Source of the DNA: Promethearchaeota archaeon
Lineage (GTDB): Archaea; Asgardarchaeota; Lokiarchaeia; Sigyniarchaeales; SOKP01
Assembly (NCBI GenBank): GCA_016930515.1
Contig: JAFGGO010000015.1
Coordinates: 1 to 37,003, forward strand
Direction of reading: 5' to 3'
DNA: 37,003 nt
Numbering within the stretch: position 1 is the stretch's first letter; every line of letters starts with the position of its first letter. The translations under genes and the position numbers were made by a program. The notes under the pieces are model-generated. The model ran no database searches, was not told the origin of the DNA, and worked only from the letters and a program-made list of their open reading frames with translations. This document shows, piece by piece, positions 17,458-26,210 of the stretch.

Positions 17458-19350
17458 GTGAAAATACTTATCTTAAGTCACTTTGACGCTCGAGTAGGGC
17501 CGGTACCCTTTTTATTTGCACCTAAAACTATAGATGAAAAGATCTTGGATCAAATACCAGATCTGATGAATTTATTTGATGAAAATGGATTTTTCGTGCA
17601 TATCGTTGGCGGATTTAAGAGTGCAAATCTCGTCTTTGAAATTCCCAATCCCCACTCTCGTGGAAAAGTGGAGATGCTTTTGATATCAGTGCTAATTACG
17701 GAAGGAGATCTTAATATTGAACTAGCAAAAGAGCTCTTACAACGATTCTCCGTGGAGCTAAACAATATTGATGACGCCTATCAAGCATTTTATCCACAAG
17801 CGACTAAGAATGGAACATTAGAAACAAAACATGAGGAAATAAATTCCCTTTTCAAAGCTTTTTACGATTCATTTCCAGAAGAAAGCTTTATTAAAAGAAG
17901 AAAGGACGCAAAAATATTTGTTTTTGGATTATCGAAAGCTGGTAAAACAACAATTATAAAGACGCTACAGAACTCTGAATTAAGAAATACAATCCCAACA
18001 ACGAGTATTGGTATATCGAGAATTTACCTGAATAATTTATCTATATTAGCATATGACGCCCCTGGGCAATCAAAATTCAGAAATATGTGGACGGATTACT
18101 TGAAAAAGCAAAATGGGCTAGTCTTTGTTCTCGACGCGTCTAGAAAGGAGAAATATTCAAGCGCAAGAGATATATTACACCATATAGCCGGACAAGAAGA
18201 TATGAAAGACTTGCCCTTGCTTTTGCTATATAATAAAGTGGACCTTTATAGCCCTAAGATCGAGGAAATTAACCAACTTTTAGAAATAAACAAGTTAAAT
18301 AGAACCAATCTAAAATCTTTTTTAACAACTGGATTTGATAGCTCTATGATTAATGATGCGTTTAGTTGGTTAAGCCAACAATTGTTATCTCTAGTAGAAC
18401 CAACTGAAAGTGCCGTTTTAAAGGAAAAAATTGGAGAAGGAATAATTTTTTCTATATGGGACGATACTATCGGGCTGGAAGTAATTGGTGTGTATCCAAT
18501 TAACGCTTTCAGTGATCCTGAAGTCTTGGCAATCAATTGTTTTTCAATCTCTCAGACGATTTTTGGAGGAGATAAGTTTAAGAAAATATCTGTTATCTTT
18601 CCCTTCGTTCATTTAAAAGCTAAAATCGCCATATACTTTGATTATGTAGAACACTCTACAGTTCGGGGAGGCAAGTTACCTCTTTCAATGCTAATTTCTT
18701 TTAAAGAAGAAGTTCCAAACGAATTCATCCACCAACTTGATTCCGTTGTTTTTAACGAACTTACTAAAATTAAACCACATTACTCTGAAAAAGAGAAAAT
18801 AAAAAACGATCTAAAAAATGTATTCGAAATGATATCCGAAATCCGAAAATCAGGATTATTTACGCTTGGTGGTGCGAAAAACGTGCCTTTAGATGAAAGG
18901 AGCACAAAATCTACAATTACTACTTTTCAAGAATATTTTGAAGCCTTCGGAAATAAATCAGATCTTTCCTATCTTCGGGAAATTCAACCTTCATATGAAA
19001 ACGAATCCCATTGTTCAATATGTTATGAAGAATTCAAGGAACGGCAAACCATCATTCGTACTGCATCTCATTTAATCAAAGTATGCGATACTTGTCTTCA
19101 CGAGATAACCTTAGCTGATATAAATATGATACACCAAATGTTTTTAGCATACGGGGGGTATTTTGGGATGAAAAAAACTCAAAATGGGAAAGACGAGAAT
19201 ATAATTGCGTTTTTAAGAAACGAAATTAAATCTAAAAAAAATGGGATAGATCCCATCGATAGACATGTTAAGGTTCTGCACGAATCCTTATTGTTGGGTA
19301 TTTATCCAGAGCGATTTAAGAAAGATGTATTACCTTATTTAAGAACCTGA
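17458..19350 (+). CDS. Multidomain Arf-like small GTPase: uDENN/longin - GTPase - uDENN/longin - C4 Zn-binding domain
   Basis: G1 GLSKAGKT, G2 PTT, G3 DAPGQ-FRNMW, G4 NKVD, C-terminal AFSWL. Flanking domains start LSHFDARVGP and IFSIWDDTIGL and each has an RG motif (R68, R403). C-terminal CSIC...CDTC. Confidence 0.85.
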   Translation: MKILILSHFDARVGPVPFLFAPKTIDEKILDQIPDLMNLFDENGFFVHIVGGFKSANLVFEIPNPHSRGKVEMLLISVLITEGDLNIELAKELLQRFSVELNNIDDAYQAFYPQATKNGTLETKHEEINSLFKAFYDSFPEESFIKRRKDAKIFVFGLSKAGKTTIIKTLQNSELRNTIPTTSIGISRIYLNNLSILAYDAPGQSKFRNMWTDYLKKQNGLVFVLDASRKEKYSSARDILHHIAGQEDMKDLPLLLLYNKVDLYSPKIEEINQLLEINKLNRTNLKSFLTTGFDSSMINDAFSWLSQQLLSLVEPTESAVLKEKIGEGIIFSIWDDTIGLEVIGVYPINAFSDPEVLAINCFSISQTIFGGDKFKKISVIFPFVHLKAKIAIYFDYVEHSTVRGGKLPLSMLISFKEEVPNEFIHQLDSVVFNELTKIKPHYSEKEKIKNDLKNVFEMISEIRKSGLFTLGGAKNVPLDERSTKSTITTFQEYFEAFGNKSDLSYLREIQPSYENESHCSICYEEFKERQTIIRTASHLIKVCDTCLHEITLADINMIHQMFLAYGGYFGMKKTQNGKDENIIAFLRNEIKSKKNGIDPIDRHVKVLHESLLLGIYPERFKKDVLPYLRT

Positions 19351-19363
19351 TAATTAAGAGCTG

Positions 19364-20626
19364 GTGTTCGTGTCTTTAAAAAATCAAAACGATGCTGCAA
19401 TGATTATGGAATTATTTAATGATATCATGTGTTTAAATCAAGTTTTCCTTATCAATAAAAATTCGGGGATTTGTGCCTATTTCTGGAGTAATAATAATTA
19501 TCACCAGAATTTAAAAAATCTTGATGATATTTTAAGCACAATATTTGAATTTGGAACTAGGATTAACGCACAAGCAACCATTAATAATATAAAATGCGGA
19601 AGTTATTATCATATTGCCATTGCAGATGGTCACTATTTTCGCATCGCTGTTGTACAATCGAAAAAACCTTCATTGCTGTTTCGATTTAAAATCCAAAGAC
19701 TTCTCAAATCAATTGAAGCCGAATTAAAAGGTTCAAAAAAAGAGGTTTCTCTCAACATTGAAAGTTTTAATAAAATTGAATCCATTATTCAAGACGAGCT
19801 CTATTTATCATTACTTCTTGCTTACAAAATCAACTACGATTATGAAAACTCGGATAAACTCCTCGAACATGATACTACTGATGTGCTCAAGATCGCGAAT
19901 ATTCTTATCCAAGAATATAAATCCCCCTTTTTTTTCATCCCAATTCTTGTACGAGAAATCTCTGAAAAGATGGATATAACATTCGAACAGATTCTCCATT
20001 CAGTTGTAGATCTTCAAAAGTTGAATATTATCGAACCTATCAAAATCCAGCAAACTTATGTTTCTCCATCAAAAAAACAATTTGAACTCATTGAGCGATC
20101 AGCCGATTATATTAATCCCAAAAAACTTGTAGCTTTTATTGAAACTCGAACTCCGATTGAAAGAGAAATTTTTTTTTTCACTCTTGTTCGAAGAAAAAAA
20201 ATCGTTTCTCCTCCAATTAAAGTAGAGGATGTAGCAATTAGAATAGAAAGCGTGAAATCTGCAAGAAAAAATCTTGAAGATTTAAAAAAAAAGGTAAAAT
20301 CAGCACTAAAAAAGAAAGATTTTGAAATTATAAAAATCTTATATAGAGAAGCGATCAGAATAGCGTGTTATTGGAATTTAGCAGAAAATCTCAAGTTTTT
20401 TATAAATGTACGACGATTGGTAAAGATAGAAGAGAATAAAAAAAAATTAGAACAATTTAAAGCAAGAGCTGAAAATGCCCAGAATGCTGGTCACGCAAAT
20501 CAAGCGTCTCATTATTTTTCCTTGGCAAGTGAAGTAGCATATTTACTTTATCATTTAGGTGATATAGAAATATATGACGATTTATGCGTTCTTGCAAAGC
20601 AAAAAAACCAGATTATAAAATTATGA
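19364..20626 (+). CDS. Hypothetical protein: longin-like domain + winged-helix-like region + helical (TPR-like) C-terminus
   Basis: LNQVFLINKNSGICAY longin-type start; ILVREISEKMDITFEQILHSVVDLQKLNIIEP wHTH-like; Ala-patterned helices at the C-terminus. Begins 13 nt after the upstream stop. GTG 19364; alternative ATG 19400. Confidence 0.7.
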   Translation: MFVSLKNQNDAAMIMELFNDIMCLNQVFLINKNSGICAYFWSNNNYHQNLKNLDDILSTIFEFGTRINAQATINNIKCGSYYHIAIADGHYFRIAVVQSKKPSLLFRFKIQRLLKSIEAELKGSKKEVSLNIESFNKIESIIQDELYLSLLLAYKINYDYENSDKLLEHDTTDVLKIANILIQEYKSPFFFIPILVREISEKMDITFEQILHSVVDLQKLNIIEPIKIQQTYVSPSKKQFELIERSADYINPKKLVAFIETRTPIEREIFFFTLVRRKKIVSPPIKVEDVAIRIESVKSARKNLEDLKKKVKSALKKKDFEIIKILYREAIRIACYWNLAENLKFFINVRRLVKIEENKKKLEQFKARAENAQNAGHANQASHYFSLASEVAYLLYHLGDIEIYDDLCVLAKQKNQIIKL

Positions 20627-20700
20627 TTCTATCTTTAATAGAAAAACTCTAAATCTAGTGTTCATTTTTAACCTATAGATATCTGTGCTAGGTGCAAAAG

Positions 20701-22506
20701 ATGGGAGAAAACACGAATAAAACAATTAGGGCGCCGATAGCCTGTATTTTAGGGCACATCGATCATGGTAAGACATCGCTTTTAGATTATATTAGAGGAA
20801 CAATCGTTCAACAACGAGAAGCTGCGGGTATAACGCAACATATTGGGGCCTCTTATTTCCCATTGGACGAAATTAAGAATTTTCTTTCAAAATCAAGACC
20901 AGAATTCGCTCAAAAAGACTTTAGACTCCCTGGAATCCTCATTGTCGATACACCTGGTCATGCGGCCTTTATGAACTTGAGAAAACGAGGTGGTGCCGTG
21001 GCAGATATTGCGATCTTGGTGGTCGACGTAACAGCTGGTACGATGCCGATAACATGGGAATCTGTGAGAATCCTTCGTGAGCGTAAAACTCCGTTTATCA
21101 TCGCTGCAAACAAGATAGATCGCATTTCTGGATGGAAACCCACCAAGGACGCCGATTTCTTAGATACATATAACAAGCAGAAATCTCATGTCAAAGAATT
21201 CTTGGACGAGAAGATCTTTTCAATTATCGGAAATTTTCTCGAGGAGGGTTTCAAGGATTGCGATGTTTATTATAAGATCAAGGATTTCACGCAAAAGCTC
21301 GCTATAGTACCTACAAGCGCAAAGACTGGTGAAGGAATATCAACTCTGTTAATGATTCTTATGGGATTAGTACAACAATACTTAACGAATAACTTGAAAT
21401 TTTCCGAAGGTCCTGCCAAGGGAGTAGTTTTAGAAGTCAAAAAAGAAAAAGGCCAAGGAAAGACGATGGATGTTCTTATTTATGACGGAGTGATTAATAA
21501 GGGCGATGATTTCATCGTAGGTGGATTGGATGGCCCCATCAAATCAAAAGTCAGGGCTTTACTCACACCAAAACCACTAGATGAAATTCGAGATCCAAGA
21601 CAAAAATTTGACACCGTTGATTTTGTGAGTGCTGCCGCCGGCATTAAGATTTTAGCGCCGAATATAGACGATGTTGTTGCAGGGTCTCCATTTAAAATAG
21701 TTGGAGATCCTTCTGACGAGGAGCGCGTGTATCAAGAAATCGAAGAGGAAGTTGATGCTATCAGGATAAAGACGGATAAAGCAGGAGTTGTGTTGAAAGC
21801 CGATACGCTTGGTTCTCTTGAAGCGCTCGAAAACCATTTCTCGAAAGAAGGCGTTAAGATTAGTATCGCTGATGTAGGACCTATTAAAAAAGAAGATATA
21901 ATCAATGCTGGTATTGTTCGTGGCTTCGATCAATACTCTGCAGTAGTATTAGGTTTTAACGTTCCCATATTACCTGAAGCCGAAGAACAGGCCTACAAGG
22001 ATAATATTAGGATCTTCACAAACGATGTGATTTATCGCTTGCTCGAAGATTATATCGAGTATTCAGAAACTAGAAAAGCCGAGGACACCGCAAAAAAGTT
22101 AAACGAGCTCATCTTACCAGCTAAACTGAAGATGCTTCCCGATTATGTGTTTCGAAACTCAAATCCCGCAGTTTTTGGTGTTTCCGTGGAGGTTGGTACT
22201 TTGAAACCCAAAGTTCTTCTCATTACAGATAAAGGAAAAAAAGCAGGGAGGGTTCACCAAGTACAGGACAAGGGTCAGTCGCTTGAAAAAGCAGAAAAGG
22301 GTTCTGAAGTCGCAATATCCGTAAAAGGTATAGAAATTGGACGAGACATAGAAAGAGACGAGACATTATTCGTTAGTCTTCCTGAATCTCATGTAAGACA
22401 ATTAATGGCGCGTTTTTTGAACGATATGACTTCAGATCAAAAAGAAGCACTCCGCGAGTATATAAAAATGATGCGAACTCACTCACATCCTTGGTGGGGA
22501 ATGTAA
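20701..22506 (+). CDS. infB: Translation initiation factor IF-2 (aIF5B)
   Basis: IRAPIACILGHIDHGKT, REAAGITQHIGA, DTPGH, NKID, KADTLGSLEAL, FRNSNPAVFGV. ATG 20701; alternative GTG 20692. Confidence 0.98.
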   Translation: MGENTNKTIRAPIACILGHIDHGKTSLLDYIRGTIVQQREAAGITQHIGASYFPLDEIKNFLSKSRPEFAQKDFRLPGILIVDTPGHAAFMNLRKRGGAVADIAILVVDVTAGTMPITWESVRILRERKTPFIIAANKIDRISGWKPTKDADFLDTYNKQKSHVKEFLDEKIFSIIGNFLEEGFKDCDVYYKIKDFTQKLAIVPTSAKTGEGISTLLMILMGLVQQYLTNNLKFSEGPAKGVVLEVKKEKGQGKTMDVLIYDGVINKGDDFIVGGLDGPIKSKVRALLTPKPLDEIRDPRQKFDTVDFVSAAAGIKILAPNIDDVVAGSPFKIVGDPSDEERVYQEIEEEVDAIRIKTDKAGVVLKADTLGSLEALENHFSKEGVKISIADVGPIKKEDIINAGIVRGFDQYSAVVLGFNVPILPEAEEQAYKDNIRIFTNDVIYRLLEDYIEYSETRKAEDTAKKLNELILPAKLKMLPDYVFRNSNPAVFGVSVEVGTLKPKVLLITDKGKKAGRVHQVQDKGQSLEKAEKGSEVAISVKGIEIGRDIERDETLFVSLPESHVRQLMARFLNDMTSDQKEALREYIKMMRTHSHPWWGM

Positions 22507-22519
22507 AAACGAATAAATT

Positions 22520-24631
22520 TTAATCCGATACTTTTATTGCTTCTGTTAATCGAATATCTCTCGACGAGCTGCCAAGGAGGATCTTGAACTCACCTGGTTC
22601 TACCTTCCAAGATTTCGAATTTTCGTCGTAAAATGATAGATCTGCAGGATGTAATTCAAAAGTTATCTTTTTATATTCGCTTGGTTCTAACATTATTTTT
22701 TGAAAACCCTTGAGTTCTTTAATTGGTCTTTGAACGCTCGATTCAACATCTTGCACATAGAGCTGAACAACTTCGGCTCCTCGACGATTACCTGTGTTGC
22801 AAAGGTCTAATGAAATCGAAAATGCATCCTTTTGATTGATTACTTCTCTTGAAATTGATAAATTTGAATATTCAAAGGTGGTATACGATAAACCATGACC
22901 GAAACAGAATAAGGGCTCTATGTTGTTTATATCAAAATGGCGATAACCCACAAAGATACCTTCCTCATATAGGACATCGTCGTAAGCATATTTAATTCGA
23001 AATTCATCTTTTTTTATACTGAGGTCCCCTTCCTTCAATTTATTCCAATCTTTTATACCTGGATACGATAATAAAGAGGCATGTGCAGGAGAATCTGAAA
23101 GTTTTCGTGGAAATGTTATTGGCAACTTTCCAGATGGGCTCACATCTCCAAAAATGATGTCAGCCAAGGCCATTCCTCCCTCCATCCCTGCATACCACGC
23201 TTGAATTACGGCGGGAACCTCATTTATCCAATTATCCATTGCTACGGGGGATCCACTAATCAGAATAACGATTGCATTAGGATTCTTCTTAACCGTTTCT
23301 TTTATAAGTTGTTCTTGTTCCAAAGGAAGTTCCAAATAAAGTCTGTCTTTGTTTTCATAATCGTTAAATTTTTTGTGATTTAGTCCAACGCAAATCACAG
23401 ATACATCGCTTTTTTCTACTGAAGAAATAATTTTAATTTTACCCTTGCATTTTAACTTGAGTCCTTTGTAGGGTGTTATTTCGTATAACGCGTTCACGGA
23501 AGAGCTTCCTCCTCCCGAGGCCATCTTCTTTTTCGCATTTGGTCCTAAAATTGAAATTTTTTTAATTTCGTTTATATTTAAAGGAAGCAAATCACATTCG
23601 TTTTTGAGGAGGACCATTCCCTCTTGAGCGATTTTTCTCGCAAGTATTTGGTGCTCGGGAGCATTTCGATATTTTTCAAAATCAATATTCCGTTCCTCTA
23701 AAAAACCTACCAAGAACATAACGCGAAGTAATCTCATAAGATTGTTATCTATATGGCGTTCTTCAAGAAAACCCATATCAAGGGCGCGTTTTAGCTTTTT
23801 TGGATGATAACAAAAAGCTTGATTTTTAGGGATCATTTTTACATTTCCAGGCATTTCTAGACTCAATCCTGCTTTAATGCATTTAACAGTGTTCGTGAAA
23901 CGGGTTGCGAACCAATCCGACATGACAAAACCACGGAAATCCCATTCTTTTACGAGCTTATCTACGAGTAAATCGTGGTTTTCACAACCATATTCTTCGT
24001 TTATCCTGTTATAGCAAGCCATAACGCTCCAGACATTGGCTTCTTTCACTGTTGCTTCAAAAGCAGGTAAATAAATCTCTCTAAGAGCTCTTTCGCTTAT
24101 CTTTGAGTTAACTTTAAATCTATTAAATTCTTGATTATTTGCAGCGTAATGCTTTGCACAAGCAGCTATTCCTTGACTTTGAATTCCTTTTACCACCTTT
24201 ACTGCCAAGATTTTATTTAGAAATGGATCTTCCGTCTGATATTCGAAGTTCCTACCACATAAAGGTGTTCTTTGAATGTTTATTCCTGGAGCTAAGACGA
24301 TTGAACGCCCAATAGATTTGGCTTCTTTGGCTAGCGCAACTCCAAACTGTTCAGAAAGGTGAGTGTTCCATGTAGCAGTCCTGCAAGTCGCAACGGGAAA
24401 ATACGACATCTTTCCTGCAAAACGTACGGCAAAACCTCCGATTCCGTGTGGACCGTCCGTCATTTTTAAAGATGGGATTCCTAGTCTTTTTATCGATTTT
24501 GTCCAAAATAACTTTTTTCCCGATAATAGCGACAATTTTTCTTCGAGCGTTAAGCGAGATAACAGATCTTTAACTCTAAATTCGATTTCCAAATTCTCGT
24601 CTTGATAAGCCAATTTTTCATTTCTTTCCAT
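22520..24631 (-). CDS. Glycoside hydrolase family 3 beta-glucosidase with C-terminal FN3-like domain
   Basis: LTLEEK, DGPHG, GRNFEY, KHYAAN, nucleophile motif MSDW, PSGKLP, FGHGLSYTTF, EVVQLY, ELKGF. No evident signal peptide. Confidence 0.96.
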   Translation of the reverse strand: MERNEKLAYQDENLEIEFRVKDLLSRLTLEEKLSLLSGKKLFWTKSIKRLGIPSLKMTDGPHGIGGFAVRFAGKMSYFPVATCRTATWNTHLSEQFGVALAKEAKSIGRSIVLAPGINIQRTPLCGRNFEYQTEDPFLNKILAVKVVKGIQSQGIAACAKHYAANNQEFNRFKVNSKISERALREIYLPAFEATVKEANVWSVMACYNRINEEYGCENHDLLVDKLVKEWDFRGFVMSDWFATRFTNTVKCIKAGLSLEMPGNVKMIPKNQAFCYHPKKLKRALDMGFLEERHIDNNLMRLLRVMFLVGFLEERNIDFEKYRNAPEHQILARKIAQEGMVLLKNECDLLPLNINEIKKISILGPNAKKKMASGGGSSSVNALYEITPYKGLKLKCKGKIKIISSVEKSDVSVICVGLNHKKFNDYENKDRLYLELPLEQEQLIKETVKKNPNAIVILISGSPVAMDNWINEVPAVIQAWYAGMEGGMALADIIFGDVSPSGKLPITFPRKLSDSPAHASLLSYPGIKDWNKLKEGDLSIKKDEFRIKYAYDDVLYEEGIFVGYRHFDINNIEPLFCFGHGLSYTTFEYSNLSISREVINQKDAFSISLDLCNTGNRRGAEVVQLYVQDVESSVQRPIKELKGFQKIMLEPSEYKKITFELHPADLSFYDENSKSWKVEPGEFKILLGSSSRDIRLTEAIKVSD

Positions 24632-24869
24632 ATTAATAATAATTTCACACTCAAGATATTTTTATTTTCAATTTGATGATTTATCACAATTAAAGAACAC
24701 AAAAAATCCAATATAATCGCTATCTTTGAATTTTTTACATGATTCTTAATCAAAGGACATTTAAAACGCCCTTCATTTTTAATAATTAAAGCGGTTTAGG
24801 TCACAAATAAGTAATAATATGTATAATATTATATCATAAGATAAAAATTAAATGTCGTAGTTTGAATAT

Positions 24870-26210
24870 ATGACAAGAAAAGTTGATTACAAACAAAAAA
24901 TCTATCAATGCATTCTCAATAATGGTTATGGATTGACGGTAACAGATATAGCTAACGAAATTAACTTTAGTAGGAATACTGTTTATAAGTACTTGGAGAT
25001 CCTCGAAAACGAAGAGCTCATTTATAAAAAAAAGATAGGAATGTATACGCTATACTTTTCTCAAGAAGAAAACATCTTAAACAAGGACTTGATAATCTCC
25101 TTTTTAAAAGGGCTCCTACTCAATTTGAAAAGCGCTTTTCCCGATAAAGGTGCAATGTTTCAAGAATTTGGGAGAAACATGGCAAAAACAATGAATATCA
25201 GCTTTTCTGAAAATGATTTAAAGTATTTCAAAAAGCTCATGTACGAATCCGATGAGAAAATCTTGGAATCTATTGGCAACTATCTTCCGTACTTTAACCT
25301 CATTCACGATAGCGTCGCCGTTTCAGAAATTACAATCGATAAAAAGAATAAAAAAGCCTCGATAACTTTCGTCAATTCAGACATGTTAGATCTTACGGAC
25401 GATTACATCTATTATTTTTACCTCATCGTGGGTTTGATGGAAGAGACATTGTCTGAACATATTGGAAGGGATATTAAATTCGATGTGCTTGAATACGAGA
25501 CCTTTGATGTAAAAAAAAATAGTTTCGTCAAGATTTCTGTAGGCATCCAAGTTATGCTTCCTGACATCGAGATGAAAGAATACGATGAAATTATTCCTAA
25601 AAATAGCGAAATCCCAGATATTGAAAATTTGAAAATGATACTTAATCCTCAAACTCTCTCATATATAGTTCACGCGTGCGTTCTCGGTCAAAATCTGCTA
25701 ATTATTAGCGAAAATGATGAAGTTAAAGCACTACTCATTAATTTTGTAAGGACAATATATAGCGAACTCTTTGATATCAACTTTTCCGTTGAAAATAATG
25801 GATTTTATCAGAAAAACAAGACACTTTATAAGGATTACATCGTAATAGGGGGATTAGAAATAATTTACGACAAAAAAAACTTACTTAATAAACGAAAAAT
25901 TAAAATTGAAAGCGTTATAGTCCAGCAGTTTTTCAACGAGCCCTCCCCTGATAAAAGCTTTTTCTCTCTTAGGCGAGAAATGCAAAAGGCTTACATGCTT
26001 TCTAAGGAATTATCGGATATCATTTCTGATTTTTTTAAGCAAAACAAGGAATCCAAGGAAATAGATTCGAAAATGATAACGGATGCCTTGGAGAAAAAAT
26101 ATAACACGAGTTTAACCACATCTTATTTAACTTTTTTAGTCGATATCATGGAAAATTATTTTGGTGTGAGTGTTCCAAAAGTCTGGAAGTTTTTCTTGTT
26201 CCAACTTTAA
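24870..26210 (+). CDS. Winged-HTH transcription regulator + V4R/H-NOX-like domain + DENN-like C-terminal module
   Basis: GLTVTDIANEINFSRNTVYKYLEILE...KKKIG wHTH (aa1-65); FQEFGRNMA...YLIVGLMEETL...FDVLE V4R-like (aa70-227); LSYIVHACVLGQNLLIIS DENN-core-like (aa250-446). Confidence 0.75.
   Translation: MTRKVDYKQKIYQCILNNGYGLTVTDIANEINFSRNTVYKYLEILENEELIYKKKIGMYTLYFSQEENILNKDLIISFLKGLLLNLKSAFPDKGAMFQEFGRNMAKTMNISFSENDLKYFKKLMYESDEKILESIGNYLPYFNLIHDSVAVSEITIDKKNKKASITFVNSDMLDLTDDYIYYFYLIVGLMEETLSEHIGRDIKFDVLEYETFDVKKNSFVKISVGIQVMLPDIEMKEYDEIIPKNSEIPDIENLKMILNPQTLSYIVHACVLGQNLLIISENDEVKALLINFVRTIYSELFDINFSVENNGFYQKNKTLYKDYIVIGGLEIIYDKKNLLNKRKIKIESVIVQQFFNEPSPDKSFFSLRREMQKAYMLSKELSDIISDFFKQNKESKEIDSKMITDALEKKYNTSLTTSYLTFLVDIMENYFGVSVPKVWKFFLFQL

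Follow-up and report, generated by a model that had tools for sequence, protein, structure and literature searches.

An uninterrupted open reading frame at positions 24870..26210 on the plus strand of the window (the whole 37,003-nucleotide stretch of DNA that was analysed) encodes a three-part protein of 446 aa (P0001). The host assembly is 4.0 Mb in size, 94% complete and 5.3% contaminated. The reading frame agrees with the one given in a preliminary description of this DNA, which had been made from the letters alone, and every peptide string quoted there was found in the translation. The features of the locus are listed below.

24870..26210, plus strand: whole ORF, encoding a winged helix-turn-helix (wHTH), then a V4R/Bet3-like domain, then a DENN C-lobe-like domain
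24888..25055, plus strand: TrmB-type winged helix-turn-helix, aa 7-62 (Pfam, invariant columns and model)
25083..25550, plus strand: Cys-less V4R / Bet3 (TRAPPC3)-fold domain, approximately aa 72-227 (Foldseek on the full model)
25551..25616, plus strand: linker, aa 228-249 (low model confidence, pLDDT <60)
25617..25937, plus strand: cDENN-like alpha/beta subdomain, aa 250-356 (boundary approximate, from secondary structure)
25947..26204, plus strand: dDENN-like all-helical subdomain, aa 360-445 (within the DENN structural alignments)
24632..24869, no strand: divergent intergenic region of 238 bp, candidate promoter/operator region
22520-24631, minus strand: GH3 beta-glucosidase gene, upstream of ORF 24870-26210 and divergent from it across the 238 bp
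20692-22506: aIF5B gene, upstream of the GH3 gene
19364-20626: gene for an unknown 420-aa protein, upstream of aIF5B
17458-19350: gene for a 630-aa protein with an Arf-like GTPase domain, upstream of the 420-aa protein gene
Downstream of ORF 24870-26210: genes for an archaeal CCA-adding enzyme, a B12-binding protein and aEF2

Thirteen full-length homologues (39-75% identity) were obtained from Promethearchaeota MAGs and metagenomes, and in public records these are labelled "hypothetical" or "HTH domain-containing". Synteny was kept only in G003, a genome of the same genus, in which the genes for the CCA enzyme, aEF2 and a HAD hydrolase were retained; the gene context was different in G004, G026 and G032. 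Adjacency to a GH3 gene was confirmed in none of the orthologues, as the contig of G003 stops before that point and the context is different in the other genera. Alignment of the intergenic region 24632-24869 with the upstream region of the G003 orthologue revealed conserved blocks and an A/T-rich TATA-like element. The inverted repeat at 24701-24736, which is the sole inverted repeat upstream of the gene, was rejected as a promoter feature as it is not conserved in G003.

A full-length AF2 model of the 446-aa protein had a pLDDT of 75 and a pTM of 0.54, a value at which the packing of the domains against each other in the model is unreliable.

The winged helix and the Bet3/V4R-like domain

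The N-terminal wHTH proposed in the preliminary description was borne out by hmmscan against Pfam, where PF01978 (TrmB) matched aa 8-62 at 28.8 bits (cut-off 25.6) and both PF08279 (HTH_11) and PF13412 (HTH_24) were also above their curated cut-offs within aa 7-62. In NCBIfam all HTH matches were sub-threshold. The secondary structure of this domain in the model consisted of helices at residues 7-17, 24-31 and 35-47 followed by strands at 51-56 and 59-64. The recognition helix was near-invariant among the 13 full-length homologues (alignment A1), with R35, T37, Y39 and Y41 invariant, a conservation which fits a working DNA-binding domain, and the wHTH would be expected to bind DNA. The same N-terminal winged helix is found in the TrmB archaeal sugar regulators (PF01978), and the gene described here is divergent from a glycoside hydrolase gene. 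However, the C-terminal sugar-binding effector domain of TrmB regulators was not found, with no Pfam match past aa 62 and the fold of Bet3/V4R at aa 72-227; the V4R domain and the DENN lobe stand in its place.

For the middle domain (approximately aa 72-227), which was modelled with moderate confidence (pLDDT 60-79), the best Foldseek match of the full-length AF2 model in the PDB was Bet3/TRAPPC3 6aq3 (E 8e-5, prob 1.0, TM to target 0.54-0.58), while TRAPPC3 from Thorarchaeota (7yh3_C) was matched with a TM of 0.61. Further Bet3/TRAPPC3 matches were 2c0j and 1sz7. The V4R sensors PoxR (5frz), MopR (5kbe) and DmpR were also matched by Foldseek, PoxR and MopR with prob 1.0, and the H-NOX structure 1xbn was among the matches as well. 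There are no cysteines in aa 70-230 and hence no Zn-binding Cys cluster. The earlier wording of a "Cys-less V4R/H-NOX-like" domain proved to be accurate because of these Foldseek matches to Bet3, V4R sensors and H-NOX and the cysteine-free sequence, and the model gives aa 72-227 the two-layer alpha/beta fold of Bet3/V4R. Pfam V4R was not among the matches listed at E<=10 (best 25 of 28 families).

The V4R/Bet3 fold of the middle domain is held in common with the Asgard TRAPPC3/V4R proteins (7yh3) and with prokaryotic V4R regulators (PoxR, MopR, DmpR; COG1719), in which it is likewise joined to a transcription output domain. In contrast to PoxR, MopR and DmpR, the protein lacks a Zn-binding Cys cluster, V4R is not among its listed Pfam matches, its output domain is a TrmB-type wHTH where theirs is a sigma54 AAA+ module, and it carries an extra DENN lobe. 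Fusion of V4R to transcription or signalling domains is common, and hydrophobic ligands are presumed for V4R domains (PMC2253512; PMC10933270); by analogy the middle domain may also have a ligand. Stand-alone wHTH-V4R relatives of approximately 230 aa are common. A whole-model Foldseek match to DENND1B, which extended over 371 columns at an rmsd of 23 A, was not taken to mean that the V4R domain structurally replaces uDENN.

Fold of the C-terminal domain

No link to DENN proteins was obtained for the C-terminal domain (C-domain) by sequence searches, all of which were at HMMER level. In the 446-aa protein neither Pfam nor NCBIfam gave a match in the C-domain. No Pfam family, PF02141 (DENN) and PF16692 (Folliculin_C) included, was assigned by hmmscan to any of 94 members of the C-domain family, and hmmsearch of the PDB with a 94-sequence C-domain profile returned nothing at E<=10. 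Across the host genome nothing was above cut-off for PF02141 or PF16692; the one sub-threshold match to the DENN models (L008) is an alpha/beta hydrolase and was discarded as a false positive. PF02141 matched in 0 of 251 Asgard genomes, leaving no HMMER bridge to eukaryotic DENN. Since no sequence profile links the C-domain to DENN, the argument for DENN homology is built on the predicted fold and on architecture. Residues conserved throughout the family were mostly aromatic or core (F301, E347, F354, K373, Y419, Y430; alignment A2).

When aa 222-446 were folded alone with the 94-sequence alignment A2, the resulting AF2 model had a pLDDT of 93.2 and a pTM of 0.90. Its alpha/beta part runs helix, helix, strand, helix, strand, helices, two strands, helix, and behind this come four helices, one of them long. 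The helix-strand-helix pattern that had been noticed from the sequence was recovered in the prediction as a helix at 260-271, a strand at 275-279 and a helix at 283-297.

The top ranks of a Foldseek search with this model were taken by FLCN/FNIP2 (6ulg), DENND1A (6ekk), DENND1B (3tw8) and SMCR8/C9orf72 (7o2w and 7mge), and FLCN (6nzd and 3v42) and DENND10 (8p0v) were also ranked first; probabilities against the DENN chains were 0.75-0.98, with weak E values of 0.02-0.3. In a fold search independent of Foldseek, VIA-align against 48,161 PDB representatives, the six best chains were all DENN proteins, with 168-185 residues aligned and Z of 8.9-10.8. DENND1A gave Z 10.8 with 177 residues aligned (chain 162-366; for 6ekk, Z was 10.8-10.9 across both comparisons), DENND10 (8p0v_M) Z 10.5, C9orf72 Z 9.4, the FLCN C-terminal domain Z 9.1 in two entries, including 3v42_B, and SMCR8 Z 8.9. 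The first non-DENN chain was an unrelated winged-helix match of 65 residues (Z 6.7). Following re-alignment of the Foldseek top 1000, 11 DENN entries led with Z 7.4-10.9 and the next unrelated row was at 5.9; DENND1B (3tw8_A) was aligned over 164 residues with Z 10.6 and an rmsd of 3.9 A.

The DENN alignments span 154-187 residues overall and cover the target C-lobe (cDENN and dDENN), with the helical subdomain included (model range to 212-221). By comparison, the ATPase domains GspE and FlaI matched the alpha/beta half only (Z 6.0-6.5). The last three helices of the C-domain also resemble a wingless winged-helix bundle, and partial winged-helix matches of 60-70 residues were observed at Z 5-6.7.

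The folliculin-like cDENN/dDENN region claimed in the preliminary description was upheld at the level of predicted fold, as the top structural matches of the C-domain were exclusively DENN-family chains, with FLCN-CT and DENND1B, the two structures proposed there for comparison, both among them. A generic Rossmann or P-loop remnant, which had been named as the outcome that would speak against DENN, fails as an explanation because the DENN matches cover both halves of the C-lobe at higher Z (9-11) and the ATPases cover the alpha/beta half only (Z 5-6.5). The likeness to FLCN and SMCR8 motif strings drawn in the same description carries no weight, identity in the structural alignments being only 7-10%. 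The assignment of the C-domain as a cDENN alpha/beta sandwich with a helical dDENN, the C-lobe fold of the DENN superfamily, is supported by the model.

The same cDENN and dDENN fold is found in the eukaryotic DENN C-lobes (DENND1A/B 6ekk, 3tw8; DENND10 8p0v; FLCN-CT 3v42, 6nzd; C9orf72/SMCR8 7o2w, 6lt0), against which Z was 8.9-10.9 with 164-187 residues aligned, at the low identity given above and with no profile match. Unlike the eukaryotic DENN proteins, the 446-aa chain has no longin (uDENN) lobe; the C-lobe is preceded instead by the putative DNA-binding wHTH and the Bet3/V4R fold.

The C-domain family and its genomic context

When 1.84 billion representatives were searched exhaustively with HMMER (E<=1e-3), 318 relatives were obtained in two classes, one of approximately 230 aa matching aa 1-226 and the other of approximately 280 aa matching aa 222-445. 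Matches of the longer class start at query positions 222-230, and the strand before the linker, with its 'LP..E' motif, is also found in the zinc-ribbon paralogues (A2 consensus). Proteins of this class begin with a zinc-ribbon-like CPxC...CxH module of about 55 aa, for which there was one weak Pfam match (Zn_ribbon_Brz, E 0.044). Seven copies of the C-domain were found in the host genome, namely the fusion, five zinc-ribbon forms and the paralogue C157, whose N-terminus reads as a ribbon-helix-helix and had no match in Pfam or by phmmer against the PDB. The catalogue of N-terminal fusions that had been suggested as a follow-up contains a zinc ribbon, a ribbon-helix-helix-like module, wHTH-V4R and a longin-like domain. 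Larger fusions of the C-domain were not found by word-based searches, which are weak evidence on this point.

With the A2 profile the family was detected in all genomes sampled from the host order, 54/54 in one of its two families and 5/5 in the other. The order lies within Lokiarchaeia (phylum Promethearchaeota). Copy number in the order reached up to nine or more per genome, sometimes in tandem arrays. In the rest of the phylum the A2 profile mostly matched the zinc-ribbon part only. Only two genera were found to have the three-domain fusion, one represented by G000, G003 and G004 and the other by G032 and G026. In a quick, midpoint-rooted ML tree of 63 C-domains, in which some branches are long, the fused proteins formed one clade (SH-aLRT 97) inside a group of zinc-ribbon paralogues (98). 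Since all of the fused proteins fall in this one clade, the tree indicates a single fusion event, in which a wHTH-V4R regulator was probably joined to the C-lobe of a lineage-expanded DENN-fold family. No neighbouring pair of a wHTH-V4R gene and a C-domain gene which could have been the source of the fusion was found in the loci of 19 relatives.

Other relatives carry an additional N-terminal domain. In P0156 (366 aa) a stretch of approximately 110 residues before the C-domain can be aligned with the N-terminus of the Arf-fusion protein encoded in the window (26% identity, pairwise E 4e-5), and the FD...GP motif and the AR(G/S) arginine occur in both. ORFs in G005 (456 aa; same genus as the host) and G028 (455 aa) encode this longin-like domain, then a zinc ribbon, then the C-domain. 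When they are compared with the N-terminal domains of several GTPase fusions, their N-termini show 33-42% identity, and the GP and the Arg are invariant. The FLCN/SMCR8/NPRL2-type GAP longins, like Asgard longins related to them, are marked out by a GP motif and an arginine finger (PMC12290439). Profile searches of Pfam and the PDB for longin identity were negative for the N-termini of P0156, L091 and L092. On the basis of sequence, the N-termini of the P0156, G005 and G028 proteins are putatively longin-like; if this assignment holds, the family has the full longin-cDENN-dDENN layout, which would support true DENN homology.

About 51 small GTPases were detectable by phmmer in the host genome, and a small-GTPase gene adjoins none of the seven C-domain copies. 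The GTPase gene nearest to ORF 24870-26210 is that of the Arf-like fusion, which lies 5.5 kb upstream with aIF5B and the opposite-strand GH3 gene between, and with so many GTPase genes in the genome such a spacing is unremarkable. In G005 the longin-like/zinc-ribbon/DENN gene is two genes from a Rag/Gtr1-like GTPase. A survey of neighbouring membrane proteins covered 52 family genes in 47 loci. Ten of these 52 genes adjoin members of a protein family of approximately 240 aa, which has no Pfam match and in which about 6-7 TM helices are predicted. A further 25 or so, all from one orthologous locus, come directly after the gene of a 159-aa multi-TM protein. The fused orthologue of G032 is two genes from such a polytopic membrane protein and next to CTP synthase, an arrangement which is syntenic with the locus of the C157 paralogue in the host genome. 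At ORF 24870-26210 itself no adjacent membrane-protein, longin or paralogue gene was found.

Possible mechanism and alternative readings

Cultured Asgard cells show little or no endomembrane system, which raises the question of what purpose is served by their eukaryote-like "membrane-trafficking" domains. Here a Bet3/V4R domain and a DENN C-lobe are placed on a predicted DNA-binding protein, and paralogues of the lobe stand behind zinc ribbons beside polytopic membrane proteins. Such a placement of the domains suggests that trafficking-type folds were used in signalling or regulation before eukaryogenesis.

DENN-domain proteins with unusual architectures were described in Asgard archaea by Liu et al. 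(bioRxiv 10.1101/2020.10.19.343400; Nature 2021), whose text contains an operon of Roadblock, Rab-like GTPase and DENN genes as well as FLCN-like longin-DENN proteins (10.1101/2020.10.19.343400). In contrast to that operon, the gene described here has neither a GTPase nor a Roadblock gene next to it, and the text of Liu et al. makes no mention of a fusion of wHTH, V4R or zinc ribbon to DENN. DENN-like folds in Archaea and Bacteria were noted in passing in a 2026 paper (PMC13392464). The combination of wHTH, V4R and DENN lobe was not found described in the literature, as far as the text of these sources goes; its distribution is narrow, and the mechanism is one that we infer.

The reading we prefer, with a probability of roughly 0.5, is that of a one-component-type regulator in which the DENN lobe docks to a network of paralogues, longin-like proteins and membrane proteins. 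The TrmB-type winged helix would bind DNA, while the Bet3/V4R domain would bind a small, probably hydrophobic, ligand and/or dimerise, in keeping with other V4R and Bet3 domains. The DENN lobe would act as a protein-protein docking module which ties the regulator to partners in the paralogue network. These may be other DENN-lobe proteins, much as the DENN domains are paired in C9orf72-SMCR8, or longin-like proteins, or the associated polytopic membrane proteins, and transcription would respond to the docked signalling network. In the C9orf72-SMCR8 complex the two DENN domains make up the bulk of the structure and the DENN domain of SMCR8 binds WDR41 (10.1101/2020.04.15.042515). A small GTPase may lie in the network, its direct binding being a proposal only. 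We consider it speculative, and on balance doubtful, that the DENN lobe is the docking site at which an Asgard membrane-receptor/longin/small-GTPase network controls gene expression, whether via a GTPase bound directly and in a nucleotide-dependent manner or via FLCN-FNIP-like pairing with a longin-DENN or zinc-ribbon-DENN paralogue.

The preliminary description had instead proposed a one-component regulator read out by a small GTPase, a direct link from GTPase to transcription. In such a model the DENN lobe would directly bind an Arf-, Rab- or Rag-like GTPase in a nucleotide-dependent manner, as the DENND1 C-lobe does Rab35, and so gate DNA binding. The best structural matches do include DENND1A/B in complex with Rab35, the DENND1B:Rab35 interface is formed mostly by residues of the C-terminal DENN part, and GEF activity in vitro was shown by the C-terminal domain of FLCN on its own (PMC4703059). 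Approximately 50 small GTPases are encoded in the genome, relatives join the C-domain to the longin-like type which is also fused to Arf-like GTPases (the gene at 17458 included), and the Rag/Gtr1-like GTPase near the G005 gene also speaks for this proposal. Against it, a GTPase gene adjoins 0/7 copies and the nearest is separated by 5.5 kb and unrelated genes, synteny with the Arf-like region is not kept beyond the genus, and the residues conserved across the family are mostly aromatic or core. We regard direct gating by a GTPase as rather improbable.

It is also unlikely, in our estimation, that the DENN-fold domain is a mere homo-oligomerisation module of a ligand-sensing wHTH-V4R regulator with no GTPase or membrane link, the target of which would perhaps be the GH3 gene, on the pattern of TrmB-type sugar regulators. 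Such a regulator would agree with the TrmB type of the wHTH and with the divergent arrangement of the two genes across 238 bp. Stand-alone wHTH-V4R proteins are widespread and evidently work without a DENN lobe, and DENN lobes pair in eukaryotic complexes. However, the GH3 gene as target is not backed by adjacency in any orthologue, and the recurrent pairing with membrane proteins, together with the longin-like fusions, argues for a signalling role of the domain. That the C-domain is not a DENN homologue at all, and is a convergent or degenerate P-loop or Rossmann-like domain with a winged-helix-like tail, is highly improbable: GspE/FlaI-type and AAA+ ATPase domains do match the alpha/beta half (Z 5-6.5), many winged-helix domains match the last 60-70 residues (Z 5-6.7) and no sequence profile leads to DENN, but the DENN chains are 2-4 Z units higher with both halves in one alignment, all top matches come from one small superfamily, a Walker A motif was not seen in the sequence, and the longin-like domain at the N-terminus of relatives parallels the longin of DENN proteins.

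The 446-aa protein is small and soluble and lends itself to direct tests of partner binding (GTPase, longin or paralogue) and of DNA binding.

Membrane-protein genes beside DENN-lobe paralogues

Of the six DENN-lobe paralogues of zinc-ribbon or RHH-like type in the genome of the window (G000), four have as their neighbour a gene encoding a membrane protein of 227-251 aa with ~6-7 predicted TM helices. These pairs were found at the following contig positions:

C115:28351-30100 (locus L030), DENN-lobe paralogue and membrane-protein neighbour
C157:320-2030 (L031), the same pairing
C103:1161-2894 (L033), the same pairing
C85:49000-50691 (L034), the same pairing

No Pfam match was obtained for these neighbours in G000, and they fall into homologous pairs, at 31% identity (E 4e-22) and 27% identity (E 2e-12). 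Pairing of a DENN-lobe paralogue with a ~6-7-TM membrane protein was observed in other genomes too, and a tandem array of such pairs is found in a relative (G028:C6:836457-841232). The zinc-ribbon DENN-lobe orthologue that is best conserved directly follows a gene for a 159-aa multi-TM protein, with ~150 bp between the two and both in the same orientation; this gene order is present in ~25 sampled genomes (loci L042-L075; example L042:3374-4851). Phosphoglycerate kinase precedes this arrangement at L042, and an ORF of 406-416 aa takes that position at the other loci.

Zinc-ribbon and longin-like modules in other proteins

The zinc ribbon is itself a mobile module. Apart from the DENN lobe, this module of ~55-80 aa stands alone or opens other, unrelated proteins (147 to 970 aa long), and the profile-search match list spreads it over several Asgard families. 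Two such occurrences are:

G000:C176:11000-11266
G021:C38:12127-12339

Proteins of 455-456 aa combine a putative longin-like domain, which carries GP/Arg motifs, with a CPxC...CxH zinc ribbon and a predicted DENN C-lobe:

L091:3001-4371 (G005:C111, same genus)
L092:3037-4404 (G028:C3)

A Rag/Gtr1-like GTPase (PF04670, E 2.5e-21) is encoded two genes from the G005 member. The 366-aa relative P0156 joins the putative longin-like domain to the predicted DENN C-lobe without a zinc ribbon. The same type of putative longin-like domain is joined, in proteins of 336-348 aa, to a divergent P-loop GTPase carrying the motif G-P-K-G-S-G-K-D-T, which phmmer with an Arf domain as query misses:

L090:3934-4968 (G000:C101)
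L103-L107

Within the window, a 630-aa protein (17458-19350) contains an Arf-like GTPase at aa 145-308 (Pfam Arf, E 2.7e-34) and is followed after 13 nt, on the same strand, by a gene for a 420-aa protein (19364-20626) which had no Pfam match.

Upstream region of the studied gene

Alignment of window positions 24584-24890 to L035:6557-6863 of G003 revealed blocks kept between two species of the genus:

~24750-24770, conserved block
~24790-24830, conserved block
near -35, A/T-rich TATA-like element

These may possibly represent promoter or operator elements.
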